NCBI GenBank assembly: GCA_027068075.1
Contig: JAMOUJ010000005.1
Span: 524,162-588,161, forward strand
Length of the DNA: 64,000 nucleotides
Direction: 5' to 3'
Source of the DNA: Candidatus Aminicenantes bacterium
GTDB taxonomy: Bacteria; Acidobacteriota; Aminicenantia; S016-38
The translations under genes were made by a program, and so were the position numbers. Below, one piece after another: positions 3,655-53,601 of this stretch. The notes under the pieces were generated by a model. It did not search any database. It saw only the letters and a list, made by a program, of their open reading frames with translations, and was not told the DNA's origin. The first letter of the stretch is position 1, and each line of letters starts with the position of its first letter.

Positions 3655-3721
3655 AACTAATTTTTATCATAAACCAAGGGGGGATTTGCAAATCCTGTAT
3701 TTTTTTTCTAAGATAACTCCG

Positions 3722-10192: not shown

Positions 10193-10198
10193 GCTGAA

Positions 10199-11281
10199 AT
10201 GGAAGATAAAATAAGGGAAGTATTGAAGACTATTCAGTTCCCTGGCTACAGCAGGGACATAGTTTCCTTTGGAATGGTCAAGGGGATAAGGGTAAGGGAC
10301 GGGGAGGTGGAGATAGACCTCCACATAAACACCAAGAACCAGGAAGCCGCCGAACAGGTCAAGAGGGAAGTGGAGGAGAAGGTTTCTTCCCTGGAAGGGG
10401 TTTCCCGGGTTAAGGTTAACCTTACCACCCTTTCCCAGAAGGAACCTCCTAAGCCTAAAGCCCATGTTTCCACCAAATCCAGCCCCTTCGCCGGCCAGCA
10501 AAGGATTGAGGGAGTGAAGTGCGTGGTGGCCGTGGGGTCCGGGAAGGGGGGTGTGGGAAAGACCACCGTGGCGGTTAACCTGGCCCTGGCCCTGGCCAAG
10601 AAGGGATACAGCGTGGGAATAATGGATGCCGATGTTTACGGTCCCAATGTCCCCACCATGATGGGGATAGAAGGGGCCGTGCCCCGGGTGACCGAGGACA
10701 ACAAGATAATCCCGGTGGAAGTGGGCGGCATAAAGGTTATAAGCATAGGTTTCTTCGTGGAGAAGGACCAGCCCGTCATATGGAGAGGTCCCCTGGTTTC
10801 TAAACTTATAGAGCAGTTCCTCAGGGATGTGATGTGGGCTCCCCTGGACATTCTCATCGTGGACCTTCCTCCGGGCACCGGGGATGTCCAACTTTCCCTG
10901 GTTCAAAAGGTCCCCGTGGACGGAGGAATTGTGGTGACAACCCCCCAGGAACTGGCCCTCCAGGATGCCCGCAAGGCCGCAAAGATGTTTGAGGAAGTGG
11001 GGGTTCCGGTCATAGGAATAATTGAAAACATGAGTTATCTCGTTTGTCCCCATTGCGGAGCCCGGATAGACCTGTTTCCCCATGCAGGGGCGAAAAAGGC
11101 CGCCCAGGATATGAATACCAAATATCTCGGGGAGATTCCCTTTGAGCCCCGGGCGGCGGAGGGATCGGATTCCGGAAAGCCGGTGGTTCTATACTATCCC
11201 GATTCCCCCCAGACCAAAGCCTTTCTGGAACTGGCGGATGTGGTGGTGAGGGAAACCAACTGTATTGAGCCGGTTCAGTAA
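10199..11281 (+). CDS. apbC: Fe-S cluster carrier ATPase Mrp/ApbC/NBP35 with an N-terminal DUF59 (MIP18-like) domain
   Basis: Walker A in ParA/Mrp form (VAVGSGKGGVGKTT) and a CPHC pair. ATG at 10199, alternative TTG at 10187. Confidence 0.9.
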   Translation: MEDKIREVLKTIQFPGYSRDIVSFGMVKGIRVRDGEVEIDLHINTKNQEAAEQVKREVEEKVSSLEGVSRVKVNLTTLSQKEPPKPKAHVSTKSSPFAGQQRIEGVKCVVAVGSGKGGVGKTTVAVNLALALAKKGYSVGIMDADVYGPNVPTMMGIEGAVPRVTEDNKIIPVEVGGIKVISIGFFVEKDQPVIWRGPLVSKLIEQFLRDVMWAPLDILIVDLPPGTGDVQLSLVQKVPVDGGIVVTTPQELALQDARKAAKMFEEVGVPVIGIIENMSYLVCPHCGARIDLFPHAGAKKAAQDMNTKYLGEIPFEPRAAEGSDSGKPVVLYYPDSPQTKAFLELADVVVRETNCIEPVQ

Positions 11282-31850: not shown

Positions 31851-33089
31851 TCACAGGGCTGACAGGGGATAGGGAACTCCCTTTCCCCGGGAGGCCTTCT
31901 GGGCCTCCTCCTTGGAAGGGAATACTCCGTAGCAGATTCTATAGCACATCCTGTTGCCTTTCCTATAAGGAACCGCAAAATACATTCTTCCTCCCCGCTT
32001 TAAATTCAATAGGGCGTATTCCTCCACGCAATTCAACTGCTTCAAGACGGTGTATCCCCTGGTTGATCTGGCCCAATCCCTCCACAGAAGGGCTGCCCTT
32101 TTAAGTTTTCCGGCCTTTACATATTTCCAGGGTCCCTGGGGTGGAAGGGCGGTTGAGGTTTTTTTCACCGTCTTTTTTTCACCGGAACTTCCGGTCTTTT
32201 GTGAAACTTTACGGGGGCTTTCGGGGGGATTCTCTATTACCCTTTGCGTTTCCCCTGTCTTCTGTTGGGTTTCGGGGCCGGAGGAACTTAATTTAAGGTA
32301 GAGAAAAAAAACTGCCCCGGCTAAGATCACCAGAAGCAAACTTATAAGCAGAACCTTCCGGCCGAAGGAACTTTCCTCTTCGTAGGGATTCAGGTTGGAT
32401 GTTTTCCGGTATTCTTCTATTTCCTCCAGGGACTCTTCTGCTATGTAGGGCTTCAGGAATCCGAAGATGTAGAGGATGGAAATGAGTTTGAGGGTGGGAA
32501 ATTCTCCCCATGGGCTTTTCCTTACCACCTCCCAAACATCCCTGCCTCCGGCGAATTCCCTCAAAAGTTTTTTCTCCCTTTCGGTGGGTTTTCCCGGGAA
32601 GGAGGCGGTCACCAGTCTGGCTCCCAGAGGAAAAAGCCTTTTAAAAAACCTCCGGTCCTTCATGGAGGTTATGGCCTCCTTGAGGGCCTCCAAGAGGTCC
32701 ACCGGCGGAAGTTCGCAGTTGACTTCCCATTCCTGGAAGGAGATTTCAGGTTCCAGCCACTCCAGAACATCCCTTAAGGCTTCCACCACCCTTTTTCTGT
32801 TTCCCCGATGGGTTTCGCTGAGGGTGAGCAATCCCTTTTCCACCAGAAATTCCACCGGAGTTTTCCTCGCCTCCAAGGCCCTGGCCAGGAAGTCCTCCGG
32901 AACCTCAAACTCCGTCCTGAGCAGTTCTTCCAGGGATTCCTCCGGTCTATTGGAAAGAAGATCGCAGATTTTCCCCTTTTTTATCAGGAAACTCTTGAAC
33001 ATTCCCCCCCAATTTATGCTCAGGATTCCAGATATCTTCTGTTTCCCTATGGACGCCAGAAGGAAGGCCAGGTTTTCCCGAGTTCTCAT
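31851..33089 (-). CDS. DUF4388-domain / single-TM / C-terminal SPOR-like (septal peptidoglycan-binding) protein
   Basis: The N-terminus (NLAFLLASIGKQKISGILSI) resembles DUF4388. One TM helix (VLLISLLLVILAGAVFFLYL). The C-terminus (...MYFAVPYRKGNRMCYRICYGVFPSKEEAQKA) resembles the SPOR consensus. Its ATG immediately abuts the nuoN stop. Confidence 0.55.
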   Translation of the reverse strand: MRTRENLAFLLASIGKQKISGILSINWGGMFKSFLIKKGKICDLLSNRPEESLEELLRTEFEVPEDFLARALEARKTPVEFLVEKGLLTLSETHRGNRKRVVEALRDVLEWLEPEISFQEWEVNCELPPVDLLEALKEAITSMKDRRFFKRLFPLGARLVTASFPGKPTEREKKLLREFAGGRDVWEVVRKSPWGEFPTLKLISILYIFGFLKPYIAEESLEEIEEYRKTSNLNPYEEESSFGRKVLLISLLLVILAGAVFFLYLKLSSSGPETQQKTGETQRVIENPPESPRKVSQKTGSSGEKKTVKKTSTALPPQGPWKYVKAGKLKRAALLWRDWARSTRGYTVLKQLNCVEEYALLNLKRGGRMYFAVPYRKGNRMCYRICYGVFPSKEEAQKASRGKGVPYPLSAL

Positions 33090-34445
33090 TTAACCCACAA
33101 AGTATTTAAGAAAAACCAGGAGGGTGGAAGGAAAAATTCCGAGTTCCAGGACCAGGAAGGTTGAGGTGAACATGGCGAGGATGCCTGTGGAGTAATAATA
33201 GCCGATGCCGGGTCCCTCCTTCATGTAAGAAACCAGTACCACCCGCAAATAATAATAAACGCTTACCAGAGTCGTCAGGACCGCCACCACCACCAGGGGC
33301 CAGAATCCGGCATCCCCCACCTCTGCGAATAGGAGGAATTTCGCCAGAAAGCCGGCGGTGGGGGGAAATCCTGCCAGGGAGACCATGAAGAAGGCCAGGA
33401 AGGCCGAAAGGTAGGGGTATTTTCTGGAAAGCCCCTGAAAATCCTTAAGGGAATTTTTCTCCAGGAAGGAGGAGATAACGGCGAAGGCCCCCAGGTTCAT
33501 GAATCCGTAGGCGGCCAGGTAAAAAAGAAGCGCCCAGGCCCCGGCCTTTCCCAGGAGGAGGCCCATGGCCATGTAACCTGCGTGGGATATGCTGGAATAG
33601 GCCATTAACCTTTTGATGTTTTCCTGCTTAAGGGCCACCAGGTTTCCGTAGAGCATGGAGAGGACGCTGGAGCCCAGGATAAACCACTTTACGCCGGGGT
33701 GTATCACGAAGTCCGAGATTCTCAGAAGCATAAGGAAGCCTGCGGTTTTGGTTACCACCGAGAAGAAGGCAGTGACCGGCGTGGGACTCCCCTGATAGAC
33801 ATCCGGGGTCCAGAAGTGAAAGGGGAAAAGGGAGACCTTGAACATGAGGGAGGAAAGAAGCAGGAGACCGGCGCCCAGGGCCAGGGGGGATGGATTGGCT
33901 GCCACCCGGGGGTCCAGAAAGAAACTTCCCCCGGCTGCGTAGTAAAAGGCCATTCCCATTACGAAGAAGACCGAGGCCATCACCCCCAGGATGGCGTATT
34001 TCACCGAGGCTTCCCGGGATAGTTCATCCTTCCTCATCCCTGCCAGGGCATAATTGGCCACCGATAGGATTTCCATGCCAAGAAAGGCCACCAGGAGGTG
34101 GCGGGTGGTTACCATAACGAGGGCTCCGGCGGTGGAAAGGGCCAGAAGGATGTAAATTTCCCCTTCCCTTATGTTTAATTTCAGGTCGTAACCGTCGGTT
34201 ATAAGAAGGGTCAGAAGGGCAAAAATGAGGATTAGCACCCCTGCCACAATTCCCATGCTGTCCTGGACCAGGAGTCCTCCCATGTAGGTTCCCCTTCTTC
34301 CCCACATGAAGAACTCCGCTGCCAGGGCGGCCGCCATTCCGGCGTAGGATGCAAATTTAGCCCACCGCCTTCCCGCCCACAAGTCCAGAAGGAGGGCCGA
34401 TAGAGAGAAGGAAACCAGAATGGCCAGAGGAAGCACGCCTATCAC
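33090..34445 (-). CDS. nuoN: NADH-quinone oxidoreductase subunit N
   Basis: 14-TM antiporter-like subunit, last in the J-K-L-M-N order. Confidence 0.9.
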   Translation of the reverse strand: MIGVLPLAILVSFSLSALLLDLWAGRRWAKFASYAGMAAALAAEFFMWGRRGTYMGGLLVQDSMGIVAGVLILIFALLTLLITDGYDLKLNIREGEIYILLALSTAGALVMVTTRHLLVAFLGMEILSVANYALAGMRKDELSREASVKYAILGVMASVFFVMGMAFYYAAGGSFFLDPRVAANPSPLALGAGLLLLSSLMFKVSLFPFHFWTPDVYQGSPTPVTAFFSVVTKTAGFLMLLRISDFVIHPGVKWFILGSSVLSMLYGNLVALKQENIKRLMAYSSISHAGYMAMGLLLGKAGAWALLFYLAAYGFMNLGAFAVISSFLEKNSLKDFQGLSRKYPYLSAFLAFFMVSLAGFPPTAGFLAKFLLFAEVGDAGFWPLVVVAVLTTLVSVYYYLRVVLVSYMKEGPGIGYYYSTGILAMFTSTFLVLELGIFPSTLLVFLKYFVG

Positions 34446-35938
34446 CTTTCACCCCCATTTTCAAAGAGGTAAAGGGTTTTGTATTTCTGCTGGGTTATTT
34501 CCATCATGAGCCTGGCGGATTTTTCAAATTTTTTCAAGAAGAAATTTGGGGAAAGTCCCATCCACAGGAAAAGAATGACCAGGGGGACCATGATGAGAAC
34601 CTCCCTCAGGTTCATGTCGGGAAGTTTCAGGAAAACTTCGTTTTTCACCCTTCCCTGCATAACCCTCTGATACATTCGCAGAAGATAAACCGCCGAAAGA
34701 ATTACCCCCAGGGCAGCCAGGGCTGCGGCGGTTTTGTTCACCTCAAAACTTCCCAGAAACACGAGAAATTCTCCCACGAAGCCGTTGAGTCCGGGGAGTC
34801 CAATGGAGGAAAACACCGTTATCATAAGGAAGGCCGCCAGCACCGGAAGAGGCCTGGCCAATCCCCCCAGTTTTTTCATGTCCCTGGTATGGGTTCTTTC
34901 GTAAAGCATGCCGATAAGGAGAAAGAGGGCCCCGGTGGAAAGCCCGTGGTTGAGCATCTGATATATCCCTCCCATGTAGGACCTCAGGGAGAGGAGGAAA
35001 ATTCCCAGCATTACCACCCCCAGGTGGCTCACGCTGGAATAGGCTACGAGCCGCTTGGCGTCTTCCTGGACGAAGGCCATGGCCGCTCCGTAAATTATGC
35101 TTATCACGGCCAGGGCCAGGAGGTAGGGGAGGAAAAATTTGAAGGCCTGGGGGAAAAGGGGCATGGCCAGCCGTAGAAATCCGTACCCCCCCATTTTCAG
35201 CAGAACCCCTGCCAGGAGTACGGAACCGGCGGTGGGGGCCTCCGTGTGGGCGTCCGGCAACCATGTGTGGAAGGGAAAGAGGGGAACCTTTATGGCAAAG
35301 GCCAGGGCAAAGGCCAGAAACAGGAGAATCTGGCTCCCCCATGGGATACTTAGGGAGTAAAGTTGATAAAAATAGAGGGAATGGTGGGGAGAGTGTTTCC
35401 AGAGGTAAAAAATTCCCACCAGCATGAGGAGACTTCCCACCATGGTGTAGAGGACAAATTTAACCGTGGCGTAGAGCCTTCTCTCCCCTCCCCACATGCC
35501 GATGAGGAAATACATGGGGATAAGCATGGCTTCCCAGAAGATGTAGAAAAGAAAGAGGTTCTGGGCCACGAATACCCCCAGCATCCCGGTCTCCAGGAGC
35601 AAAATCATTATGTAGAACTCCTTTTCCCGCTCCTTTATGTACCGGAAGGACGAGGCCAGCGCCAGAGGAGAAAGGAGGGCGGTAAGAACTACCAGAACCA
35701 AACTTATTCCATCCATGCCCACATGGTAATTCAGACCGAAGCCTATCCACCTGGCTCTCTCCACGAACTGGGGGAAAGGATAATAGGGGTTGAAGTTCAG
35801 AAAGAACCACATTGAGAAAAAGAACACTGCGGATGAAACCCCCAGGGCGAAGTATTTTACGAAGTCGGTTTTTTCCCGCGGAACGAAGAGAAGAAGAATC
35901 GCCCCGGCCACGGGAAGGAATATCATGACGCTAGTCAT
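34442..35938 (-). CDS. nuoM: NADH-quinone oxidoreductase subunit M
   Basis: Antiporter-like subunit. The true ATG at 35938 overlaps the nuoL stop (ATGA). Confidence 0.9.
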   Translation of the reverse strand: MTSVMIFLPVAGAILLLFVPREKTDFVKYFALGVSSAVFFFSMWFFLNFNPYYPFPQFVERARWIGFGLNYHVGMDGISLVLVVLTALLSPLALASSFRYIKEREKEFYIMILLLETGMLGVFVAQNLFLFYIFWEAMLIPMYFLIGMWGGERRLYATVKFVLYTMVGSLLMLVGIFYLWKHSPHHSLYFYQLYSLSIPWGSQILLFLAFALAFAIKVPLFPFHTWLPDAHTEAPTAGSVLLAGVLLKMGGYGFLRLAMPLFPQAFKFFLPYLLALAVISIIYGAAMAFVQEDAKRLVAYSSVSHLGVVMLGIFLLSLRSYMGGIYQMLNHGLSTGALFLLIGMLYERTHTRDMKKLGGLARPLPVLAAFLMITVFSSIGLPGLNGFVGEFLVFLGSFEVNKTAAALAALGVILSAVYLLRMYQRVMQGRVKNEVFLKLPDMNLREVLIMVPLVILFLWMGLSPNFFLKKFEKSARLMMEITQQKYKTLYLFENGGER

Positions 35939-37761
35939 AACAACCCCCTGAGCGCTACGAATAGGGCTATTACGATGCCCGCCGCCATCCACAGGGCGTA
36001 ATCCTTCAGAAGACCTGTCTGGAGAAAAGATAAGAGTCGTCCCCCTTCCAGGGTGAGTTTTCCGCTGCCCAGGACGGCCCGATCTATCACCCCGGCGTCA
36101 AAATACCGGCTTACCGCCCTGGCACCCTCCCTGTAGGGAACCACGAAGAGGGCCTCGTATATTTCGTCCACATAATATTTATTGGTCAGAAGGGTATAAA
36201 GGAACCCCGTGCGAAGTCCCCGTTTCCTCTTTAAGTATATCCACCAGGCCAGGACGATGGCCGCCAGGGCCAGACCCACGCTCACTCCCATGAGGATCAA
36301 TTCCCTTTCGTGGGCGAGTTCCTCCAGGTGGATGTATCCCAGGGGTTTTAGCCATTGGTGAAAGGAAGAGAAGAACCATCCTGAAATTACCGAAAGAAGG
36401 GCCAGAATTTCCATGGGGATGGCCATAACCGGCGGTGATTCGTGGGCGTGTTTCCAGCCCCTGGGTTCTCCGTAGAAGGTCATGAAAATAAGCCTGAACA
36501 TGTAAAAGGCCGTAAGGCCTGCGGTGATAACGCCCACGGTCCAGAGGGTTTTGCTGTGAAGGTAAGCCTGGGCCAGGATCTGGTCCTTGCTGAAAAAGCC
36601 TGCAAATCCCGGGATCCCTGAAATGGCCAGGGCTCCTATGGTGAAAACCCAGAAGGTTATGGGCATTTTCCTGCGCAGGCCTCCCATTTCGCGCATGTCC
36701 TGGGTCCCTACGGCGTGAATAACGGAACCCGCCGCGAGAAAGAGAAGGCTCTTAAAAAAAGCGTGGGTGAAGAGGTGAAACATACCCGCGGATACAGCCC
36801 CCACCCCCACCCCGGTAAACATGTAGCCTATCTGGCTGATGGTGGAGTAGGCCAGAACCTTTTTGATGTCGTTCTGGACCAGGGCAATGGTGGCGGCCAG
36901 GGCCGCGGTAATTATTCCCACCCATGCCACGACCTCCAGGGCCAGGCCCGAGCGGGCGAAAAGGGGAAACAATCGGCTCACCATGTAAACCCCGGCGGTT
37001 ACCATGGTGGCGGCGTGGATGAGGGCGGAAACAGGAGTAGGGCCCTCCATGGCGTCGGGAAGCCAGATGTATAGAGGAATTTGGGCCGATTTTCCCGTGG
37101 CACCCAGAAAGAGAAGGAGGGCTGCCGCCGTGGCCGCCGTGGTCGGCAGGGAGGCGGCCCGGGAATTGATGTATTGAAAATCAAGGTTTCCCAGGAGGGT
37201 GAAGAGAAGGAATATTCCCAGGAGAAAGCCGAAGTCTCCCACCCGGTTTACTATGAAGGCCTTTTTTCCGGCGTCGGCGGCAGTATCGCGGTCAAACCAG
37301 AATCCTATGAGGAGATAACTGCACAAACCCACCCCTTCCCATCCTACGAACATCATGGGGAGGTTCGGGGCCAGGACCAGAAGAAGCATGGAGAAGGTGA
37401 AGAGGTTAAGGTAAGCAAAATACCTTCTGAAACCGGGATCTTCCCCCATGTATCCCACCGAATAAATGTGGATCAGGAAGGATACCCCGGAAACGGTGAG
37501 GGCCATGATGGAGGAAAGGGGATCCCAGAGAAGCGAAAAGTCCACATGGAATTTTCCCACGGAAATCCACGGGAAAAGATAAAAAACCGAGGGATGGTTT
37601 TTAAAGGTTGTGAAGGCTATTAAAGATGCCAGAAAGGATATTCCCACGGTGGCCGGAGAAAACCAGAAGACGGCCCTTTTTCCCAGAAATCTTCCCAGGA
37701 GGATGAGGACCAGGGCTCCCAGGGCAGGAGCCAGAACTATTAGTGCAAGAAGGAAACTCAT
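35935..37761 (-). CDS. nuoL: NADH-quinone oxidoreductase subunit L
   Basis: 608 aa, antiporter-like, with the long C-terminal extension typical of NuoL. Confidence 0.9.
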   Translation of the reverse strand: MSFLLALIVLAPALGALVLILLGRFLGKRAVFWFSPATVGISFLASLIAFTTFKNHPSVFYLFPWISVGKFHVDFSLLWDPLSSIMALTVSGVSFLIHIYSVGYMGEDPGFRRYFAYLNLFTFSMLLLVLAPNLPMMFVGWEGVGLCSYLLIGFWFDRDTAADAGKKAFIVNRVGDFGFLLGIFLLFTLLGNLDFQYINSRAASLPTTAATAAALLLFLGATGKSAQIPLYIWLPDAMEGPTPVSALIHAATMVTAGVYMVSRLFPLFARSGLALEVVAWVGIITAALAATIALVQNDIKKVLAYSTISQIGYMFTGVGVGAVSAGMFHLFTHAFFKSLLFLAAGSVIHAVGTQDMREMGGLRRKMPITFWVFTIGALAISGIPGFAGFFSKDQILAQAYLHSKTLWTVGVITAGLTAFYMFRLIFMTFYGEPRGWKHAHESPPVMAIPMEILALLSVISGWFFSSFHQWLKPLGYIHLEELAHERELILMGVSVGLALAAIVLAWWIYLKRKRGLRTGFLYTLLTNKYYVDEIYEALFVVPYREGARAVSRYFDAGVIDRAVLGSGKLTLEGGRLLSFLQTGLLKDYALWMAAGIVIALFVALRGLL

Positions 37762-38057
37762 CCCTTCATCTCCGATGCTATGTCTTCGGTGGCCTTCCCC
37801 TTATCCCTTATGGCTACGGCTATGGCCGCCAGGGCCACCGCCACCTCCGCCGCCGCCACCGTAAGTATGGCAATTACCGCCGCCTGGGCCTCGGTGGGTG
37901 AAGACCTTGTGGCGAAGACTAAAAGAGCGAGGTTGGCCCCGGAAAGAGCCACTTCCCCGGAAAGCAGCATGGTCAGCAGGTCTTTCCTTACGAAAAATCC
38001 GGCTATTCCGGCGGATATTAAAAGGGCCGAGAGAAGGAAGAGGGCCGTGGAACTCAT
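37758..38057 (-). CDS. nuoK: NADH-quinone oxidoreductase subunit K
   Basis: 99-aa three-TM protein with a conserved Glu in the TM helix. 4-nt overlaps on both sides. Confidence 0.85.
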   Translation of the reverse strand: MSSTALFLLSALLISAGIAGFFVRKDLLTMLLSGEVALSGANLALLVFATRSSPTEAQAAVIAILTVAAAEVAVALAAIAVAIRDKGKATEDIASEMKG

Positions 38058-38521
38058 GACCTCCTCCTCATGAGGACCAGGGAAGAGACCACCGCCGTCA
38101 AAATCAGCAGGGAGGTGAGTTCAAACACATAGAGGTATTTACCCAAAAACAACTCTCCGAGGGCGGATACCGAGGTGGAAACCCTTCGGAAGACAGAACG
38201 ACTTCCCAGGAAAATAAGGCTCAACTCCGTACCCAGCGAGATAAAAATGAGGAAGAAGGCCCATTTGATGCTCCTGCCTTCCCGGGACCTTCCGGAGACC
38301 AGCCACGCCACCATGAGGAAGGCTACCACCACCGCTCCGGCGTAAAGGAGAACATAGATCCCCCCCAGGAAGGTATAGCCCATTAGGGCGAAAACTCCCC
38401 CCAGGGCGGAAAAAACCGCCACCAGGGAAACCACGGACTTATCTTCCTCCGATGCAAAGAGGAAAATCCCAAGGCCTGCGGCGATTAAAAGGAAAAGAAG
38501 CCAGAAGGCCAGGTCCAACAT
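38054..38521 (-). CDS. nuoJ: NADH-quinone oxidoreductase subunit J
   Basis: 155-aa five-TM protein in the position preceding nuoK. Confidence 0.8.
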   Translation of the reverse strand: MLDLAFWLLFLLIAAGLGIFLFASEEDKSVVSLVAVFSALGGVFALMGYTFLGGIYVLLYAGAVVVAFLMVAWLVSGRSREGRSIKWAFFLIFISLGTELSLIFLGSRSVFRRVSTSVSALGELFLGKYLYVFELTSLLILTAVVSSLVLMRRRS

Positions 38522-38556
38522 AACACGGGGATTATATCAGGGTATAGAGTTTCAAA

Positions 38557-40035
38557 TCAAATTTCGGGTTTTTCGGAGGATGCCCTCACCGCCCTGTCGT
38601 GGGCCCAACTGCGGATTTTCTTTACCTGCTCCGCCATGGTGGTGGACAGGGGAACGGTATTGGTGAATATTTTGTAGAGGTCGTCCTCCTCCACGGGTCT
38701 CCCCTGGTTGAAGGCCTCGTACATGGCGGATATTATCGCCTGCTCTATTTCCGCCCCGGACCATCCCTTTGTAATCTGGGCCAGTTGAGGGATGTTGAAC
38801 TTGTCCGGGTCAATCCCCCTCTTTTTGAAGTGAACCCGAAAAATTTCCTCCCTTTCCTTTCGGGAGGGAAGGTCCACGAAGAAAATCTGGTCAAACCTCC
38901 CCCGGCGGAGGAGTTCCGCCGGTAGCATGTCAATCCTGTTGGCGGTAGCCCCCACGAACACCCCCTCTTTGTGCTCCTGCATCCAGGTCAGAAAATAGCC
39001 CAAAATCCGGGCGGTGGAATCGGCGGTGTATTTGTCCGTGATTCCGCTTTCAATCTCGTCCAGCCATAGAACCGCAGGGGATGCGGATTCCACCACCTTC
39101 AGGGCCCTGATAAAGGCCTCCTCAGGAAGGCCTGCGATCCCCGAGTAAACGAGGTTCATGTCCAGTCTGAAGAGGGGAAGTTCCCATAGGGTGGATACCG
39201 CCTTTATTATTATGCTCTTTCCGCACCCCGTTATCCCCATGACCAGAAGGCCCCGGGGCACATCCAGTCCGTATTTCCGGGCCTCGGGAGAAAAGGCCCG
39301 TTTCCTCTTTATCAACCATTGTTTAAGGTTATCCAGCCCTCCGATGTCCTCCAGTCGCAGTTTTTCCGTAATGTATTCCAGGACCCCCTCCTTCCTCATT
39401 ATCTGCCGTTTTTCCTCCTTTAGGGCCTCAATTATGCCCGCATCCAGACTTTTCCTCTGGTGGGTGACCCTCCTCAGGGCGAAGGTGGCTTCGTCCACGG
39501 TGAAGCCTTGCAGGGCCACGGCCATCTGGTTGACATCCTCCCGGCTGAGGTTTATTTTCGTTCCCTTTTCTCCCCTCTCCTTTAGAAAAGAGACCACCAG
39601 GGAAAGCATTTCCTGGAATTCAGGAAGGGGGTAATCCACCACCGCCACATGCCTCTTCAGTTCCTCCGGTAGTTTGAAAATAGGGGATAGGAGAAAAACC
39701 CTTTTGGGCTTTCCCCTGATGGAGAAATAGGTATCCCTGAACTTCCGTATGACCTCCGGATTCTGAAAAAGGTGGTGCACATCCTTGAGGATGAAGAACC
39801 CCTTTTCCTGCTGAACTATGAAGTCCAGGGCCTGGATGAGGGAGCGGGTTTCCTCCTCCGGGTTTCCATCCCTTTTAAAACCCCCGGTGTTGGTCCACAC
39901 GAAGGGGGAAGTCCCCAGGGCAGAGGAGGAAAACTCTTCCAGGACTTCCTCCACCCTGTTTTCCTCCCAGGAGACTATGTAAATAAAGGGATAGCCCGCT
40001 GAGATTAATTCCCTCAGTTCCTCCCTTACCTTCAT
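38557..40035 (-). CDS. Classical-clade AAA+ ATPase with an uncharacterised ~230-aa N-terminal domain
   Basis: Unusual Walker A LVMGITGCGKS, Walker B VLWLDEIES, and a second-region-of-homology/arginine finger GATANRIDMLPAELLRRGRFDQIFFVDLP that closely matches the FtsH/katanin clade. The N-terminal half has no P-loop. Confidence 0.75.
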   Translation of the reverse strand: MKVREELRELISAGYPFIYIVSWEENRVEEVLEEFSSSALGTSPFVWTNTGGFKRDGNPEEETRSLIQALDFIVQQEKGFFILKDVHHLFQNPEVIRKFRDTYFSIRGKPKRVFLLSPIFKLPEELKRHVAVVDYPLPEFQEMLSLVVSFLKERGEKGTKINLSREDVNQMAVALQGFTVDEATFALRRVTHQRKSLDAGIIEALKEEKRQIMRKEGVLEYITEKLRLEDIGGLDNLKQWLIKRKRAFSPEARKYGLDVPRGLLVMGITGCGKSIIIKAVSTLWELPLFRLDMNLVYSGIAGLPEEAFIRALKVVESASPAVLWLDEIESGITDKYTADSTARILGYFLTWMQEHKEGVFVGATANRIDMLPAELLRRGRFDQIFFVDLPSRKEREEIFRVHFKKRGIDPDKFNIPQLAQITKGWSGAEIEQAIISAMYEAFNQGRPVEEDDLYKIFTNTVPLSTTMAEQVKKIRSWAHDRAVRASSEKPEI

Positions 40036-40052
40036 GGGCTTATTTTAACATC

Positions 40053-40080
40053 TTGTTTTGGTTCTTTAAATTTATATAAT
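40053..40080 (+). promoter_or_regulatory. Sigma70-like promoter for the cNMP/FHA gene in an AT-rich divergent region shared with the AAA gene
   Basis: TTGTTT, 16 nt, TATAAT (40075-40080), then GGAGG and ATG 40113. The opposite strand has TTGAAG, 17 nt, TAAATT for the AAA gene. Confidence 0.45.
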
Positions 40081-40112: not shown

Positions 40113-40847
40113 ATGAAAGGCTTGGAAAGCGAAGTTATAAAGGTCCCCAAGGGGGTGGTGATCTTCAGGGAAGGAGAGGACGGTAATTTCATGTACCTCA
40201 TTTTGAAGGGGAAGGTGAAGATCTTCAGGAGGGGGGAGGAGATAGCCACCCTGGGAAGGGGGGATTTCTTCGGAGACCTGGGTCTCCTCACCGGCTTGCC
40301 CCGGGTGGCGGATGCCATTTCGGAGGAGGATTGTGAACTGGTGCTCATAGACGAAAACAGTTTTGACAGAATAATAAAATCAGACCCCAACCTCAGCATC
40401 AGGATTTTGAGGAAACTGGCCCACCGGCTAAGGGATATGTACAAACTCATGGATAAAATGGAAAGGGAGGAGACGGCCATAGAGGTGGAAAACGAACCCC
40501 TTCCGCCCAACATAAAGGCCTGGTTTGAACTGGAAGAGGAAGGTGAGGTTTTTCCCCTGGAGCAGAGGATTACCTTTCTGGGGAGGAAAGACCTTTCCAG
40601 TTCCTTCGTTCCCCATGTGGACCTTTCTCCATACGATAGAAATAGGTACATTTCCAGGAGGCACGCCCGGGTGATATTCCGCAACGGAAAATTTTACATA
40701 AAGGAAGAGGTGGGGGTATTGAACGGTACTTTCCTGGACAACAGGAGAATTAAACCGGGCTTTCTCTACGACCTCAAAGACGGCACCCGGGTAACCCTGG
40801 GGAGGCTTACCCTGACCTTCCACACCAGGGTGAAGCAGGATCAATAA
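40113..40847 (+). CDS. Cyclic-nucleotide-binding (CAP-family) domain fused to a C-terminal FHA phosphothreonine-recognition domain
   Basis: N-terminal cNMP-binding beta-barrel (FGDLGLLTGLPRVADAIS with the Gly/Arg of the phosphate-binding cassette). C-terminal FHA motifs (GR..., SRRHARV, NGTFLDNRRI, DGTRVTLG). Confidence 0.8.
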   Translation: MKGLESEVIKVPKGVVIFREGEDGNFMYLILKGKVKIFRRGEEIATLGRGDFFGDLGLLTGLPRVADAISEEDCELVLIDENSFDRIIKSDPNLSIRILRKLAHRLRDMYKLMDKMEREETAIEVENEPLPPNIKAWFELEEEGEVFPLEQRITFLGRKDLSSSFVPHVDLSPYDRNRYISRRHARVIFRNGKFYIKEEVGVLNGTFLDNRRIKPGFLYDLKDGTRVTLGRLTLTFHTRVKQDQ

Positions 40848-42681: not shown

Positions 42682-43755
42682 TCAAGCCCCCGGCGAAAAT
42701 TCCCGGGAAAGCCTCCTGAGGGCTTTCAATTTGTCCCGGTCCCCGAGTTTTGAACTCTTTATGGCCCTTTCAAGCACCTCTATGGTTTTTTCGTAAACCT
42801 CAAAGTCCACCGGGTAAGGGATTCTGTCCTTTCCACCGTGGGCGAAGGAATACAGGGCCGGGTCCTCGTAACTGGGGGGTGCCCCGTAAACTATGTCGGC
42901 CACCAGGGACAGGGCCCTTACGAACTTGGCTCCTATTCCCTTTATCGTGAGCAATTGAAGAAGGTCTTCCGGGGCCCTTTCGTAGGTTTTGGCCATGGCC
43001 CTGAGGAGGTTTTTGGGCTTCATGTCCGAGGAGACCAGGGCATGTCTTCGGGGCATGTTCAAAATCCGGGTGAATTCCCGGGTTATTTTACCGGGGTTTT
43101 CCCTGGAGAGTTGAACCACGAGTTCCGTGTTTTCAGCGGATTTTCGGGAAGTAAGGTCCAGGACCAAATTTTCCCTCCTCATGGAGGAGATGCCGGTGTG
43201 GGGTTCCCGGGTAAGGTCCTCGGCTTCCCAGGAGAGGTAGTGATACCTCCTTGCCAGCCTCAATTCTTCCTTCATCCCCTGCTGAATTACGGCCCACTTC
43301 TTATCCGGGGTGAAGAAAATGGTGTGGTGGTAGATGGAGTAGCCGTCCTGGAGGAGGACGGAATCCACCTTGGCAGTGATGCGGCTGGCCCTTATTATGG
43401 GCTGTGGATCAAAGGCGAACCTTTCGGCCAGGGATTCCACCTCCTCCGGGGTCCTCCTGGCAGTCGCTCCCTTTCCCCCCGCCGCCATTATCAAGGGGGT
43501 GGAGATCTCGGCCAGGGCTTCCTTCAGGGCGGCGGTGGTGGTGGTAGTAAGCCCCGAGGAATGCCAGTCAAAACCCAGAACACAGCCCAGGGCCTGAAAC
43601 CATCCGGGATGGGAAAGCCTCCTCAAAAACTCCTCCGGAGGAAATTCCTCCAACATGGCTTCGGCCATGGCCCGGGCCAGTTTTACCATCCTGGAAAAGA
43701 GCCAGCGGGGTGCCCTTCCCCTGTGAAGGGGCAGATTGGCGATTCCTTTCCTCAC
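42682..43755 (-). CDS. DUF763-family protein (function unknown; family mostly archaeal)
   Basis: The N-terminus (IANLPLHRGRAPRWLF) is, as far as I recall, characteristic of DUF763. 357 aa. Confidence 0.5.
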   Translation of the reverse strand: MRKGIANLPLHRGRAPRWLFSRMVKLARAMAEAMLEEFPPEEFLRRLSHPGWFQALGCVLGFDWHSSGLTTTTTAALKEALAEISTPLIMAAGGKGATARRTPEEVESLAERFAFDPQPIIRASRITAKVDSVLLQDGYSIYHHTIFFTPDKKWAVIQQGMKEELRLARRYHYLSWEAEDLTREPHTGISSMRRENLVLDLTSRKSAENTELVVQLSRENPGKITREFTRILNMPRRHALVSSDMKPKNLLRAMAKTYERAPEDLLQLLTIKGIGAKFVRALSLVADIVYGAPPSYEDPALYSFAHGGKDRIPYPVDFEVYEKTIEVLERAIKSSKLGDRDKLKALRRLSREFSPGA

Positions 43756-48559: not shown

Positions 48560-50374
48560 CTAATCCAGGATTCCTTCCACCAGGCCGTAATTTTCTCCTG
48601 GAACCACCAGGAGAATCCCGGGAACCATTTTCCTGGCCTCCCGGTATATTTCCCGGGCTATTTTTACCCCCTCCCTTTTCCCCTCCTTCCCCCTCTTGCC
48701 CTCCATCCTCTTGAGAACCCATGGGGGGAGGTGGATTCCCGGAACCTCGTAATGGAGGTACTCGGCGTTTTTCCATCCCAGCAGAACCATCACCGTCACC
48801 ACCACCGGAACCCCCAGGGTCTCCAGTTTTTTCAGCAAACCCTCCAGATAAGCGGGGTCAAAAACCGGCTGGGTCACCAGAAACCGGGCGCCGGCCCCTA
48901 TCTTGGCCCGGGCCCTCTCCAGTTCCCCCTGGTCTATCCGGTTCAGGTTAAGGGACGCCCCCACCAGGAAGTTCGTCCTTGCCCCCAGGGGGTTTCCCAG
49001 AAAGCCCCTGCCCGAGTTCATGGAGTTTATGATTTCTATAAGTCCCAGGGAATCCAGGTCGTAAACTCCTGTGGCGAAGGGGTAATCCCCCAGGGAGGGA
49101 GGGTCTCCGGTGAGGGCCAGGATGTTTTCTATCCCCATGGCGGAGGCTCCCAGGAGGTCCGATTGGATGGCCAGGAGGTTCCTGTCCCGGCATGTCATGT
49201 GAACGATGGTTTCCAGGGGGAGGGTTTCTTTTATTATCTTCGCAAAGGAAAAGGGATTCATCCTCACCCTGGCCATGGGGGAGTCGGAAATGTTCAGGGC
49301 GTTTACCTCCGTGGCCTTCCACCGCTCCAGACCCTTCAGGATTTCTGAGAAATCCGGATTCCTGGGGGGTTCCACCTCCACGGAAAGGAGTTTTCCTTCC
49401 TTCAGAAGTTTTCCAACCCTGGTTTCCACCCGGGCCGGGCCCCTATCCTCCGATTCCCCCTTCTCCCTGAGAACCACCCTTTTCACCTTTCTCTTGACCC
49501 TTTTCCCCCGGAGCCTTTGAGAAAGCACCCTTATGTGCTCCGGGGTGGTTCCGCAGCATCCCCCTATGAATTTGGCCCCCATTTTTGCGGTTTTTTCCCC
49601 GTAATAGGCGAAGTACTCCGGGTTGTGGGGATAGAGGAATTTCCCGTGGATAAACCTGGCCTGGCCGGCGTTGGGCATGTATAGGACCGGTTTCGGAGTG
49701 AGGGAGAGGATTATCCTCACCGCCTCGTGAACCCCCTGGGGACCGGGGCCGCAATTGGCCCCCACGGCATCCACCGGGAGGTTCTCCACCTTTTCCATTA
49801 TGTCCGTTATCTTCTCCCCAAAGATGGTCTTCAGTTGATTGGGAAATGTGAAGGATGCGATGATGGGGGTCTGGGGGGAGAGGGAACGGGCCACCTTGAT
49901 CCCCACCTCCATTTCCTCCACGCAGTTGTAGGTTTCAAAGAGAAGGAGGTCCACCCCTCCCTCTAAGAGGGACTCTATCTGCTCGCGGAATATTTCCTCC
50001 AGTTCCGCGGAGGAAAGCGTCCTCCTGCGGTCGTGGGGTCGGGACACAGGCCCTATGGAACCCGCCACGAAGGCCTCCGTCCGGGCCACTTCCCTGGCCA
50101 GGCGGGCTCCCATGTAGTTTATTTCCCGGGTTTTGTCCCCTATCCCGAAAAACTCCTCTAAGACGAAGCGGTTGGCTCCGAAGGTGTTGGTTTCTATGAT
50201 TTCTGCCCCGGCATTCAGGTATTCCCGGTGGATTTCCTTCACCAGTTGGGGCATGGTGAGGTTCACCTCGTCGTAACAGAATCCCCGGGGAACCCCCTTC
50301 TGATAAAGGTAGGTCCCCATGGCCCCGTCCAGGATCACCACATGGGGGTCTTCAAACCTTTCCCTTATGTCCAC
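48560..50374 (-). CDS. Bifunctional homocysteine S-methyltransferase / 5,10-methylenetetrahydrofolate reductase (YitJ-like fusion)
   Basis: The N-terminal Hcy-binding domain ends in GGCCGTTPEHI. The C-terminal MetF-like domain contains ...ARFLVTQPVFDPAYLEGL. Confidence 0.8.
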   Translation of the reverse strand: MDIRERFEDPHVVILDGAMGTYLYQKGVPRGFCYDEVNLTMPQLVKEIHREYLNAGAEIIETNTFGANRFVLEEFFGIGDKTREINYMGARLAREVARTEAFVAGSIGPVSRPHDRRRTLSSAELEEIFREQIESLLEGGVDLLLFETYNCVEEMEVGIKVARSLSPQTPIIASFTFPNQLKTIFGEKITDIMEKVENLPVDAVGANCGPGPQGVHEAVRIILSLTPKPVLYMPNAGQARFIHGKFLYPHNPEYFAYYGEKTAKMGAKFIGGCCGTTPEHIRVLSQRLRGKRVKRKVKRVVLREKGESEDRGPARVETRVGKLLKEGKLLSVEVEPPRNPDFSEILKGLERWKATEVNALNISDSPMARVRMNPFSFAKIIKETLPLETIVHMTCRDRNLLAIQSDLLGASAMGIENILALTGDPPSLGDYPFATGVYDLDSLGLIEIINSMNSGRGFLGNPLGARTNFLVGASLNLNRIDQGELERARAKIGAGARFLVTQPVFDPAYLEGLLKKLETLGVPVVVTVMVLLGWKNAEYLHYEVPGIHLPPWVLKRMEGKRGKEGKREGVKIAREIYREARKMVPGILLVVPGENYGLVEGILD

Positions 50375-52745
50375 CTTCCAGGGCCTCCTTCAATTTGTTC
50401 AGCCCATCCACAGCGTCCTTGGCGTAAATGTCCGCCCCGAATTCCTTCACCAGCCTGGGGCTTACCGTGGCTCCCCCGAGGACCACCAGAACCTCCGGCC
50501 ACCTTTTCTTGATTTCCCTGGTGGCCCTTTCCATTTCGTCCAGGGATGTGGTCATGAGGCAGGAAAGACCTACCGCATGGGGTTTTTCCCTGGAGATGGC
50601 CTCCAGAAGGTCCTCCAGAGGTACATTTTTTCCCAGGTCCACCACCTCAAAGCCAAAATTGGAAAAAACCGCCTTGGCTATGTTTTTCCCTATGTCGTGG
50701 AGATCCCCCTTCACCGTGGCCATAACCACCTTCCATTTTTTCTGGCCCTCGCCCTTAAGCCTTTCCTCAATGAGGGAAGAGGCCCTTTTCATGGCCTCCG
50801 CCGAGGCGATGAGTTGGGGGAGGAAGTAAACCTTCCTTTCGTAGAGTTCCCCCACCTCCTTCATGGCGGGGATGAGGATTTTGTTCATTATTTCCATGGG
50901 CTCCATCTTTTCCAGGAGTTCCAGCACCAGGGTGTGGGCCTGGGCTTTATTGCCGTCGGTTATGGCGTATCTCAGGGCTTCCTCGGGGGAGGTTGGGGAT
51001 GGCCTTGCGGAAGATAGGGGCTGAGGGCCCCTGGAGAGGAGGTCCATGAACCTGCTGGCCTTGCCTATGAGGAGTTCGGAAGCCATGGCGGTCTTGCGGT
51101 TCTCTTCCCCCAGGGACATTATGGCGGCGTCGGCCCCCCGCTCTATGGCCATGGCCAGGAAGGCCCGGTTCAGAGTCCTTCTCCCCGGCATCCCGTAGGA
51201 GACATTGGAAAGGCCCAGGATTATGGGAACCGGAAAGTTTCTCTTCACCTCCTCTATGGCCCGGAGGGTTTCCCGGATCCCCCGGGAGCCTGTGGAGAGG
51301 GAAAGAACCACGGGGTCAAAAATTATGTCCAGGGGAGAAAGCCCCGTTTCTTCCGCCTTCCTGAGGAATTTTTCCAGGGCCCGGAGTTTCTTTTCAGAGG
51401 TTTCCGCCACTCCCTCCTCGTCTATGGCTATGGCCACCACCGCGGCCCGGTATCTTTTTACCAGAGGCAGGACCTCCTCCATCCTTCCTTCCTCGGCGGT
51501 GCAGGAGTTCAAAGCCGCCCTTCCCGGGGTGGTTTTCAGGGCTGTTTCGGCGGACTTAAGGTTCTTCACATCTACGAAAATCGGGATTTTCACCCGGGTG
51601 GTTATTTCCCTGAGAACGGCGGAAAAGAATTCCGGGGATGTTTCCCCTTCACGGCCGAGGTTAACATCCAAGGCTTCGGCCCCCTGCCTTTCCTGTTGAA
51701 CGGCGGCCTGGGCAATGGCTTCAATGTCCCGGGTTTCTATCAGGGGCTTCAGTTTTTTGCTTCCGAAGGGATTTATCCTCTCGCCCACCATCCGGAAGGG
51801 AAACCCCGTTCCTGTGGGCAGCAGATTCGTCCTTGAGGCCAGGAAGAAAAAGCGGGAGGGAGACCCTTCTCGGCGGGGGGATTTTCCCTTGAGTTTTTGG
51901 GCCAGGGCCCTTATGTGTTCCGGGGTGGTCCCGCAACATCCGCCCACTATGGAGGCTCCCTGGCGGTAAAATTTTTCTCCGTATTCTGAAAATTCCCCGG
52001 GGGCCATGGGGTAAAGGAGGGTTTCTCCCTTTTTAATTGGAAGGCCGGCGTTGGGGTAAATGGCAAAGGGTTTTCCCGTCCGGGAAAGGACCCCGGCTAT
52101 CTCAAGAAATTCCTCCACCTCCCTCCCGCAGTTGGCCGAGAGCACCTCCGCGTGGGTTCTGGAAAGCACGGCGAAGGCGGTTTCAGGATCCGAGCCGGTT
52201 ACGGTTCTTCCATCCTCGGTAAAGGTCATGGACAGTATCATGGGGATGTTCGGGGCGGCTTCCTCGGCGGCCATGGCTGCTATTTTGGCCTCCTCCAGAT
52301 CCACCATGGTCTCGGCCTGGATGATGTCCACCCCCTCCCGGGCCATGGTGGAAAAGACCTCGTGGTAGGCTTCGTAGGCCTGCTCCCAGGAAAGTTCTCC
52401 CAGGGGCTGGAGAAGTTTTCCCAGGGGTCCCACGGACCCGGAGACGAAGACCCCGTCCCCGGCGGCCTTCCTGGCCAGGAATATTCCCCTTTTCAGCAGG
52501 TCCAGAAAATCCCCTTCCAGACCCGCCTCCTCGGCTTTTATCCTGTTAAGGGAAAAGGTATTGGTTTCTATTATGTCCGCTCCGGCCTCAATGTAGTCCC
52601 TGTGTATGGACAGGATTAACCCGGGGCGCTGGCGGTTCAAAATCTCCACCAGGGGGAGTTTTCCCCCGTATCTACGGACCACCTCGGTGCCCATGGCACC
52701 GTCCAGAATTAAAACCCTGCGCTCTAAGGACTCCAGGAGGTTCAT
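50352..52745 (-). CDS. metH: Cobalamin-dependent methionine synthase, short form (Hcy + pterin + B12 domains, no AdoMet reactivation domain)
   Basis: GGCCGTTPEHI (Hcy domain), a pterin-binding TIM region, the B12-binding DxHxxG motif (GDLHDIGKNI), and an ending ...LKEALEGGHKGKV. The true ATG is at 52745 (MNLLESLERRVLILDGAMGT); the upstream 67-aa ORF extension is spurious. Confidence 0.85.
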   Translation of the reverse strand: MNLLESLERRVLILDGAMGTEVVRRYGGKLPLVEILNRQRPGLILSIHRDYIEAGADIIETNTFSLNRIKAEEAGLEGDFLDLLKRGIFLARKAAGDGVFVSGSVGPLGKLLQPLGELSWEQAYEAYHEVFSTMAREGVDIIQAETMVDLEEAKIAAMAAEEAAPNIPMILSMTFTEDGRTVTGSDPETAFAVLSRTHAEVLSANCGREVEEFLEIAGVLSRTGKPFAIYPNAGLPIKKGETLLYPMAPGEFSEYGEKFYRQGASIVGGCCGTTPEHIRALAQKLKGKSPRREGSPSRFFFLASRTNLLPTGTGFPFRMVGERINPFGSKKLKPLIETRDIEAIAQAAVQQERQGAEALDVNLGREGETSPEFFSAVLREITTRVKIPIFVDVKNLKSAETALKTTPGRAALNSCTAEEGRMEEVLPLVKRYRAAVVAIAIDEEGVAETSEKKLRALEKFLRKAEETGLSPLDIIFDPVVLSLSTGSRGIRETLRAIEEVKRNFPVPIILGLSNVSYGMPGRRTLNRAFLAMAIERGADAAIMSLGEENRKTAMASELLIGKASRFMDLLSRGPQPLSSARPSPTSPEEALRYAITDGNKAQAHTLVLELLEKMEPMEIMNKILIPAMKEVGELYERKVYFLPQLIASAEAMKRASSLIEERLKGEGQKKWKVVMATVKGDLHDIGKNIAKAVFSNFGFEVVDLGKNVPLEDLLEAISREKPHAVGLSCLMTTSLDEMERATREIKKRWPEVLVVLGGATVSPRLVKEFGADIYAKDAVDGLNKLKEALEGGHKGKV

Positions 52746-52764
52746 AGGGAAAATTCTAACACAA

Positions 52765-53601
52765 TCACCGGGCAGAAAAGATGGCCAGCGCCCTGTTGCC
52801 CAGGCCGGGCAGGTTGGAGACCAGCCAGAGGGGAGGAAGAAGGAGGCGGTACAGGGCTCTGTGAGGGATTTCCACCGTTCTGGACTTTTCCCATATCTCC
52901 CCCCAGGGGGAGGGCAAGGTTTTGACCCTGAGAAGGCGGAAGCCAAATCTTTCCAGTTCTTTAAAGGTCCTTCTGGAGAACCTGAAAAGATGGTCCCCGG
53001 GGGAAAGGCCGAGAAGTTTTATCCTCCCACCGCTTATCAAATAACCAAGTCTGGAGAGCCGGTGGAACAAGGCCTCCTGAACGGGGGTTTCAATGACCAG
53101 AAGCCCCCCGGGTTTTAGAACCCTCCTGGCTTCCCTCAGAAAGGCCGCCGGGGAGGGGAGGTGTTCTATCAGATTAAAGGCAAATACGAAATCAAAGTGG
53201 GAGGAGGGGTAGTTTTCGTCCAGGGTTCCCATTCTGGCCTTTAGCCCCTTATTCCTTGCCACCTGAACTGCCCGGGGGGAGGTATCGCAGCCCTCTATTT
53301 CAAAGCCGGCCTCAGCGGCCACCTCCAGGAATGTTCCGGTGCTGGAGCCCACCTCCAGGCCTATGCCCGGGGGAGCAAATTGGAGGATAAACTTCAACAT
53401 CCTCTTAAACCTTCTCCGGAGCCTTTCCTCCACCTTGAGGTAGATTTCGTCGGCCCAATATCCCCTTGAGGTTAATTTGACCCGATCCACCCACAAAAGT
53501 CCGCACTTAGGACAGCGGAGAACTTCAAATCCATCCCCTTCTGCCCACCTTTTTCCAGGTTCCCCGCATATATCACAGAGGTAGCGATCGGTAGAGTTCA
53601 A
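52765..53601 (-). CDS. Class I SAM-dependent methyltransferase with an N-terminal Cys4 zinc ribbon
   Basis: CDICG...CPKCG ribbon, a GLEVGSSTG AdoMet motif, and LKPGGLLVIETP. Confidence 0.7.
   Translation of the reverse strand: MNSTDRYLCDICGEPGKRWAEGDGFEVLRCPKCGLLWVDRVKLTSRGYWADEIYLKVEERLRRRFKRMLKFILQFAPPGIGLEVGSSTGTFLEVAAEAGFEIEGCDTSPRAVQVARNKGLKARMGTLDENYPSSHFDFVFAFNLIEHLPSPAAFLREARRVLKPGGLLVIETPVQEALFHRLSRLGYLISGGRIKLLGLSPGDHLFRFSRRTFKELERFGFRLLRVKTLPSPWGEIWEKSRTVEIPHRALYRLLLPPLWLVSNLPGLGNRALAIFSAR

Follow-up and report, generated by a model that had tools for sequence, protein, structure and literature searches.

A probable split complex I gene set in a Candidatus Aminicenantes bacterium: nuoJKLMN, its AAA+ ATPase neighbour and a clade-specific PATAN-TM-SPOR-like gene

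Introduction

The nqo cluster of Paracoccus denitrificans holds URFs, extra and unrelated reading frames. In split nuo or ndh sets, such as the cyanobacterial ndh genes, a cluster stands apart from the Q- and N-module genes, and multiple scattered nuo clusters have been described for an Ignavibacteriae genome (PMC7509429). The locus analysed here occupies positions 31851-40035 of a 64-kb stretch of contig JAMOUJ010000005.1 from a Candidatus Aminicenantes bacterium; the whole stretch (1-64000) is referred to as the window. At this locus, an AAA+ ATPase gene is followed by nuoJ, nuoK, nuoL, nuoM and nuoN, encoding membrane subunits of complex I (NADH:quinone oxidoreductase type), and by a gene for a protein with a PATAN (DUF4388) domain, a transmembrane (TM) segment and a SPOR-like domain. 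As in the split sets, the cluster encodes bona fide NuoJ to NuoN with complete channel residues, has coupled internal genes and lies apart from the Q- and N-module genes; it differs from them in the leaderless-type promoter at nuoJ and in the extra clade-specific gene at the 3' end. Like the nqo cluster, the operon carries a gene without a recognised complex I role (in one relative, L089, a GH57 gene as well), but unlike the URFs of P. denitrificans this extra gene encodes a PATAN-TM-SPOR-like bitopic protein.

A sequence-only reading of the stretch had treated the seven genes as a single unit. This did not hold, as the AAA+ gene is set apart by a conserved predicted promoter of nuoJ itself, and the tidy seven-gene 'unit' falls into three parts: the AAA+ gene, which looks independent, a half-operon of complex I under its own promoter, and a passenger gene specific to the clade. 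The locus probably represents the distal half, the one that pumps protons, of a complex I gene set divided between sites. In it, nuoJKLMN would be transcribed from a promoter of its own, with the AAA+ gene as an independent neighbour and the PATAN-TM-SPOR-like gene as a passenger. The novelty is small: an ordinary split nuo operon with one clade-specific passenger or accessory gene, which is mildly interesting.

Results

Layout of the locus

The region 31851-40035 consists of seven co-oriented open reading frames (ORFs) on the minus strand. This layout and the junctions described in the sequence-only reading agreed with the ORF coordinates and with direct inspection of the sequence. The genes and the predicted promoters, in the direction of transcription, are as follows.

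40042..40070, minus strand: predicted promoter of the AAA+ gene, TTTAAA-17-(TG)TAAAAT, ending 6 nt before the AAA+ ATG, without a Shine-Dalgarno sequence (SD); from a consensus scan
38557..40035, minus strand: AAA+ ATPase, 492 aa, with a predicted degenerate AAA-like N-module and a classical-clade C-module
38531..38560, minus strand: predicted promoter of nuoJ, TTGATT-18-(TG)TATAAT, ending 9 nt before the nuoJ ATG, without an SD
38054..38521, minus strand: nuoJ, 155 aa; PF00499, 65 bits
37758..38057, minus strand: nuoK, 99 aa; PF00420, 63 bits; ATGA overlap with nuoJ
35935..37761, minus strand: nuoL, 608 aa, with the C-terminal lateral-helix region; NF005141, 737 bits
34442..35938, minus strand: nuoM, 498 aa, ATG at 35938; TIGR01972, 590 bits
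33090..34445, minus strand: nuoN, 451 aa, GTG start; TIGR01770, 354 bits
31851..33089, minus strand: PATAN-TM-SPOR-like bitopic membrane protein, 412 aa; PF14332, 28.1 bits

The stop codon of the AAA+ gene (38557) and the ATG of nuoJ (38521) are separated by 35 nt. From nuoJ to nuoN, all neighbouring genes overlap by 4 nt, reading ATGA at J/K, K/L and L/M and GTGA at M/N, and the TAA of nuoN directly abuts the ATG of the PATAN-TM-SPOR-like gene (TAAATG). The start of nuoM was placed at 35938 and not at the GTG at 35992 that opens the longest ORF, and the gene call in the relative L086 concurs. Here and below, L-numbers denote loci of relatives that were compared with the window. Structure prediction used seven rows of the nine-sequence alignment A2, the two rows from loci being left out.

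A tblastn search of the 64-kb window with NuoA, B, CD, EF, G, H and I of a canonical outgroup operon found none of nuoA-I, and Pfam scans of the other large ORFs of the window revealed no further nuo gene. Likewise, no nuoA-I was present within the 10-kb flanks of the clade loci of relatives. The initial description of a nuoJKLMN-only cluster was thus confirmed, and nuoA-I presumably lie elsewhere in the genome.

Complex I character of NuoJ to NuoN

The three large subunits passed their curated NCBIfam models, with 737 bits against a cut-off of 556 for NuoL (equivalog NF005141), 590 against 264 for NuoM (TIGR01972) and 354 against 333 for NuoN (TIGR01770). NuoJ and NuoK scored above the Pfam cut-offs and below the NCBIfam equivalog cut-offs. 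The Pfam families found were PF00361, PF00662 and PF06455 in NuoL and PF00361 in both NuoM and NuoN. NuoL has 608 aa compared to 613 aa in E. coli, and its C-terminal extension (residues 420-600) matched PF06455 (NADH5_C) marginally, at 28.4 bits against a cut-off of 28.2.

The five proteins were then aligned to those of E. coli (locus L176) and compared at what we take to be the canonical proton-channel positions, given in E. coli numbering. The equivalents of E144, D178, K229, H254, K342, K399 and D400 in NuoL, of E144, K234, K265, H348 and E407 in NuoM, of E133, K217, K247 and K395 in NuoN, of E36 and E72 in NuoK and of Y59, G61 and V65 in NuoJ were all kept. Since all of these channel residues are intact, NuoJ to NuoN look like working complex I subunits, neither decayed nor repurposed.

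The sequence-only reading had also raised a non-canonical use of the module. In such a case, JKLMN would work without NuoA-I, either as an Mrp-like antiporter or docked to another redox module, and the PATAN-SPOR protein would be an accessory subunit. The lack of nuoA-I in the 64-kb window and within 10 kb of any clade locus would suit this idea, as would the self-contained transcription unit and the clade-specific membrane protein co-encoded in all eight contexts (both described below). The scores point the other way: NuoL, NuoM and NuoN are at or above their curated cut-offs, whereas the Mrp antiporter models reached 300-325 bits against cut-offs of 937-1117, far short of them. MrpB-, E-, F- or G-like ORFs were not found in the cluster, where every ORF was assigned to NuoJ-N, and the complex I pattern is intact (NuoL K399/D400, NuoM E407, NuoN K395, NuoK E36/E72, NuoJ Y59). 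Furthermore, sequence change is far more rapid in the PATAN-SPOR protein than in NuoJ to NuoN, and an unrelated GH57 gene can share the operon. What was found for such a use was adjacency, and we regard it as very improbable.

The frequency of JKLMN-only clusters was assessed in 49 metagenome loci, those with the most similar NuoL among the matches listed and with at least 2.5 kb of upstream sequence. Twelve of these had JKLMN only, with unrelated housekeeping genes as upstream neighbours. Because about a quarter of the related loci thus share the arrangement of the window, ordinary operon splitting is the explanation that we favour over a stand-alone module.

A conserved predicted promoter at nuoJ

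The consensus scan placed the best promoter-like site of the 8.9-kb region at nuoJ. This site, TTGATT-18-TGaTATAAT, has 10 of 12 matches plus the TG, and the TGA stop codon of the AAA+ gene falls inside its -35 hexamer. No SD precedes nuoJ. The site was kept in eight loci, namely the window, L081, L084, L089, L093, L113, L178 and L179, with a common pattern of TTGAYT or TTGACA, 17 or 18 nt, TATAAT, exactly 9 nt and the ATG, again without an SD. The spacers upstream of nuoJ otherwise vary in sequence and in length (35-135 nt; 101 nt in L089). L093 and L113 carry the promoter although what lies upstream in both is not the AAA+ gene but a BNR/sortilin gene in divergent orientation. Because the site persists across relatives, including those in which the AAA+ gene is absent, we predict that nuoJKLMN forms a separate transcription unit with a nearly leaderless mRNA, read from a sigma-70-type promoter.

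The expression signals of the AAA+ gene, in contrast, differ by lineage, while the nuoJ promoter is constant throughout. A leaderless-type promoter precedes the AAA+ gene in the window and in L081, an SD-bearing leader is present in L089 and L088, and in L084, L178 and L180 the gene shares 4 nt with the HU gene that precedes it. The AAA+ gene would accordingly be expressed independently of nuoJ. As a promoter and a leaderless-type start precede nuoJ in every lineage read, the AAA+ gene cannot be said to head the nuo genes. A single AAA-nuoJKLMN operon is not supported either, given the promoter between the genes in the eight loci and an adjacency that is broken in one lineage (see below).

Within the window, the same arrangement recurs. 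A TATAAT-like hexamer lies 6-9 nt before the start codon, without an SD, at the first genes starting at 17006(+), 26086(+) and 62380(+), at a GTG-start DUF763 gene (42682-43755, minus strand), and at the AAA+ gene (40035, minus strand) and nuoJ (38521, minus strand) themselves. Operon-internal genes of the window bear GGAGG-type SDs. This pattern suggests that leaderless mRNAs are frequent in the source organism. For nuoJ, the sharp conservation of the leaderless-type promoter provides a directly testable transcription start.

Linkage of the AAA+ gene to nuoJ

The order AAA+ gene then nuoJ was found in the window, in L081-83 (AAA+ identity of 86%), in L179, in L178 (72%), in L089/90 (71%) and in L084/85/L180 (69%). 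The 5' neighbour of the AAA+ gene in the window is a divergent cNMP-binding/FHA gene (40113-40847, plus strand). In one close lineage the adjacency is broken: the AAA+ orthologue L088 (74%) adjoins DUF362 and radical-SAM genes, and the same sample contains a nuoJKLMN-PATAN locus without the AAA+ gene (L093). L113 is a further locus of this AAA-less kind. The NuoL of the AAA-less L093 is 83% identical to that of the AAA-bearing L089.

Distant synteny was sampled in 80 genome loci from many phyla, taken among the matches listed, with an AAA+ homologue at 38-62% identity. In none of the 80 did nuoJ-N, the PATAN gene or the cNMP-FHA gene occur within 10 kb of the homologue. The proposed synteny with nuoJ was therefore seen in six close lineages and was absent from one close lineage and from all 80 listed distant loci. 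A conserved partner of the AAA+ family was also looked for among these loci and rejected, as no neighbour family occurred in more than 12 of the 80 by ORF clustering, which is noisy.

The 12 JKLMN-only loci served as a control for the persistence of such a neighbour. In five of them (L120, L121, L123, L131 and L140), a class II aminoacyl-tRNA synthetase (aaRS) gene of the Asp/Asn/Lys type is co-oriented directly upstream of nuoJ, ~0.85-2.2 kb upstream of nuoL. NuoL identities are 68-85% within the aaRS clade compared to 64-84% within the AAA clade, a comparable divergence. Because the aaRS-nuoJ pair persists at equal divergence, the persistence of a co-oriented neighbour is not evidence of function.

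These data bear on the proposal of a dedicated role for the AAA+ protein in assembly or quality control of the membrane arm, in which the protein would extract or remodel NuoJ-N and its gene would be kept adjacent by selection. The co-oriented adjacency in six lineages, down to 69% AAA+ identity and with a changing gene upstream of the AAA+ gene, is consistent with this proposal, as are the intact ATPase motifs and the lack of a terminator of the AAA+ gene before nuoJ, which the sequence-only reading had named as a check. Weighed against it are the conserved promoter and leaderless-type start of nuoJ itself, which would be poorly translated from a read-through transcript, a close lineage that lost the linkage without any change to the nuoJ promoter, the absence of linkage to nuo in the 80 listed homologue loci, and the aaRS control, in which a meaningless adjacency is equally persistent. 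To our knowledge, Romboutsia and gut Melainabacteria, which host members of the AAA+ family, are generally without complex I, and this also counts against the proposal. With adjacency as its positive evidence and the aaRS pair as a counterexample, a dedicated role of this kind is rather unlikely.

Two candidate cases were set aside. An M24 peptidase gene lies divergent from nuoJ in L115 and from the AAA+ gene in L089, but as an ancestral neighbour it was rejected, the two proteins not being detectably orthologous. L177 (AAA+ identity of 81%) is uninformative on adjacency because its contig ends 146 nt past the AAA+ gene, in an IS200-like ORF. IS200/Y1-transposase-like ORFs lie beside the locus in two relatives (L177, 11477-11622; L179, 8126-8986).

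The AAA+ ATPase

The C-terminal part of the AAA+ protein matched PF00004 (AAA) at 76 bits, the domain and lid covering residues 263-449 of 492. The Walker A motif GITGCGKS (267-274), the Walker B residues D326/E327 and the sequence RRGRFD (377-382) were located, so that the Walker A motif and the arginine-finger region RRGRFDQ reported from the sequence alone are both present. In 36 homologues, Walker A, D326/E327, the sensor 1 residue N366 and R377/R378/R380 were invariant. The protein thus carries the Walker A and B motifs, the sensor 1 residue and the second-region-of-homology arginines of classical-clade AAA+ proteins.

Sequence matches in the PDB span the C-terminal module alone. The AlphaFold model of the protein has a pLDDT of 82.5, with residues 1-215 above 90, and shows an alpha/beta sandwich with a helical lid in the N-terminal module (~1-215). 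On this model, the ~230-aa N-domain first described as unknown is AAA-like in fold, though degenerate and lacking a P-loop or Walker A motif.

The stretch at the position of pore loop 1 (residues 297-302) has the family consensus VYSGxAG, with conserved A301 and G302 after a variable residue 300. It aligns opposite the KYYG of VAT, and the aromatic-hydrophobic-Gly motif of threading unfoldases was not found in it. A YSGxAG loop without the motif expected of a threading unfoldase argues further against the assembly factor described above. The combination of a P-loop-less module with an active AAA module and a non-aromatic pore loop makes a simple unfoldase model less certain. Type II AAA+ proteins with one inactive ring, such as Cdc48/p97, VAT, NVL and Pex1/6, differ in several respects: the AAA+ protein of the window lacks their double-psi-barrel N-domain, its first module has no P-loop at all, and its pore loop 1 is without an aromatic residue.

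The family is large. More than 6000 word-sharing homologues were found, and an exhaustive search gave 3999 representatives at E <= 1e-30, with at least 150 full-length 50%-identity clusters at 36-47% identity. The closest named homologues among the matches listed were from Aminicenantia and Acidobacteriota, at no more than 57% identity. The protein is therefore an ordinary member of a huge family of ~495 aa, and the label 'atypical' was withdrawn.

Homologues in the JGI data carry the broad COG-style name 'SpoVK/Ycf46/Vps4 family'. The cyanobacterial and plastid Ycf46 protein (~490-500 aa) resembles the AAA+ protein in length and in having the AAA module in the C-terminal half, although functional reports on Ycf46 come from phototrophs, a different setting. 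Melainabacteria carry full-length homologues at ~40% identity; the ten representatives nearest to these had generic names only (Elusimicrobia, Armatimonadota, the COG label), and no cyanobacterial name occurred among the ten. A literature search with the CDD name CHL00195 gave no match. The family is possibly Ycf46-like, the likeness of size and layout being a lead. A preprint that draws on Jiang et al. 2015 (bioRxiv 10.1101/2025.07.21.665879) reports that the ATPase Ycf46 interacts with KaiC and has an effect on the carbon-concentrating mechanism, which depends on NDH-1 complexes with NuoL/M paralogues. If the AAA+ protein were Ycf46-like, this would be a lead in favour of the assembly role considered above.

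The PATAN-TM-SPOR-like protein

The 412-aa protein encoded behind nuoN consists of a cytoplasmic PATAN/DUF4388 domain (~1-215), an acidic linker, a TM segment (~241-268), a disordered linker rich in K, P and S, and a SPOR-like domain (~320-412). The earlier assignment as a DUF4388/TM/SPOR-like protein was upheld for the N-terminal domain, where PF14332 (PATAN/DUF4388/PatA_N) matched residues 7-139 at 28.1 bits against a cut-off of 25 and was the precomputed assignment on most homologues. For the C-terminal domain (~90 aa) it was upheld at the level of the fold. SPOR (PF05036) was the top Pfam match in all five diverged sequences (E 0.0017-0.064), yet at 14-19 bits it stayed below the gathering threshold of 21. 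The predicted RNP-like beta-alpha-beta-beta-alpha-beta fold resembles solved SPOR domains, and at fold level the term 'SPOR-like' is reasonable. Two cysteines of this domain, C354 and C382, are invariant in all nine homologues and could form a periplasmic disulfide; the positions noted in this domain are 354, 382 and 386.

SPOR domains are known from division-site proteins. Compared to FtsN, DamX, RlpA and CwlC, the domain of the window protein falls under the Pfam SPOR threshold and has the conserved C354 and C382, and the protein has a cytoplasmic PATAN fusion in place of the usual short N-terminal anchor. With PatA of Anabaena and with PixG, TaxP1 and LsiR of Synechocystis it shares an N-terminal PF14332 domain; unlike these it has no CheY receiver and is membrane-anchored with a periplasmic domain. 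PATAN domains, for their part, have been described in proteins that regulate pilus motors and cell polarity (10.1101/2021.06.11.447907).

At the sensitivity of the search, only 8-10 homologues were found, all in the clade of the window, and none outside it in 5.8 billion proteins. As far as we know, the architecture is undescribed and clade-restricted. The gene lies downstream of nuoN and co-oriented with it in all eight known contexts. The junction is of the coupling type (TAAATG or a 1-nt overlap) in the window, L081, L094/L095 and L179, the true start in L081 being the ATG right behind the nuoN stop codon. In L093, L084 and L180, gaps of 47-122 nt separate the two genes, and the only gap read, that of L084, contains an SD of its own. 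The proposed coupling to nuoN thus holds as linkage throughout and as a tight junction in part of the clade. In L089 (17009-18904) and L090, the PATAN gene is separated from nuoN by an inserted GH57 glycoside-hydrolase gene, which in L089 overlaps each of its two neighbours by 4 nt, so the operon tail takes unrelated cargo. In the window, a convergent saccharopine-dehydrogenase-like gene follows on the 3' side.

Such constant linkage could mean that the protein is tied to complex I, perhaps as a tether or regulator of the membrane arm at the peptidoglycan of the septum or the poles. The position behind nuoN in eight of eight contexts, up to a NuoL divergence of 64% identity, argues for a tie, together with the coupling-type junctions and a family found nowhere else in the proteins searched. 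The gaps of 47-122 nt, the separate SD of L084 and the GH57 insertion of L089 argue against it, and so does very rapid divergence, the PATAN-SPOR protein being 25-33% identical where NuoL is 64-70% identical. Moreover, we know of no tie to respiration for either PATAN or SPOR domains. A complex I role of this protein is unlikely; it is most likely a cell-envelope or division-site protein that rides on the operon tail.

Discussion

In the favoured reading, the complex I genes would be spread over at least two chromosomal sites, with nuoJ-K-L-M-N and the PATAN-TM-SPOR-like gene forming one operon read from its own sigma-70-type promoter. This promoter would sit tightly behind the gene upstream, at its 3' end. 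Transcription would begin 0-3 nt before the nuoJ ATG, giving an mRNA that is leaderless or nearly so. The internal genes would be translated by coupling, through the ATGA/GTGA overlaps and GGAGG-like SDs. The AAA+ gene would be separate, with its own leaderless-type promoter and a general role not tied to complex I; it may have arrived upstream of nuoJ in the common ancestor of a small clade, most of which has kept this order. The PATAN-TM-SPOR protein would join a cytoplasmic protein-interaction domain to a periplasmic peptidoglycan-binding domain.

Several points weigh against this reading. The partner nuo locus was not seen, and 'split' rests on the intact residues and on the frequency of such splits. 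Promoter and transcription start alike were predicted from sequence motifs. The order AAA+ gene then nuoJ is kept in six sampled lineages at AAA+ identities of 69-100% and under three upstream contexts (cNMP-FHA, HU and M24 peptidase), and so outlasts most non-operonic adjacencies. No terminator-like hairpin was found between the AAA+ gene and nuoJ, so read-through from the AAA+ promoter is possible. Such a transcript would offer nuoJ without an SD, and its leaderless-type start would hence be poorly translated.

It is also conceivable, if quite unlikely, that the membrane arm gained two clade-specific partners, the PATAN-TM-SPOR protein as an anchor or regulator at septal or polar peptidoglycan and a Ycf46-like ATPase that assembles or polices the arm. 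In its stronger form, the JKLMN module would operate without NuoA-I. If true, the role of the ATPase would parallel the influence on NDH-1-dependent CO2 uptake that has been reported for cyanobacterial Ycf46. The clade concerned is thermophile-like and uncultured. Should either accessory protein act on complex I, it would represent a novel type of accessory factor for complex I of bacteria; gene neighbourhood is the basis for this, and the residual chance is small.

Other features of the window

Two further genes lie ~27-30 kb from the nuo cluster: a membrane H+-pyrophosphatase gene (7636-9837, plus strand) and a gene for an Mrp/NBP35/NUBPL-type Fe-S cluster carrier ATPase (10187-11281, plus strand). 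The eukaryotic NUBPL is a complex I assembly factor. An Rfam scan of positions 1-64000 gave no family at the gathering score, tRNA included. Two long ORFs overlap on opposite strands, at 3272-5185 (minus) and 3686-5473 (plus), with 637 and 595 aa, respectively; the plus-strand ORF had no Pfam match. Finally, a gene for a MetH-like B12-dependent methionine synthase (50352-52946, minus strand) is followed directly by one for a homocysteine S-methyltransferase-MTHFR fusion (48560-50374, minus strand).

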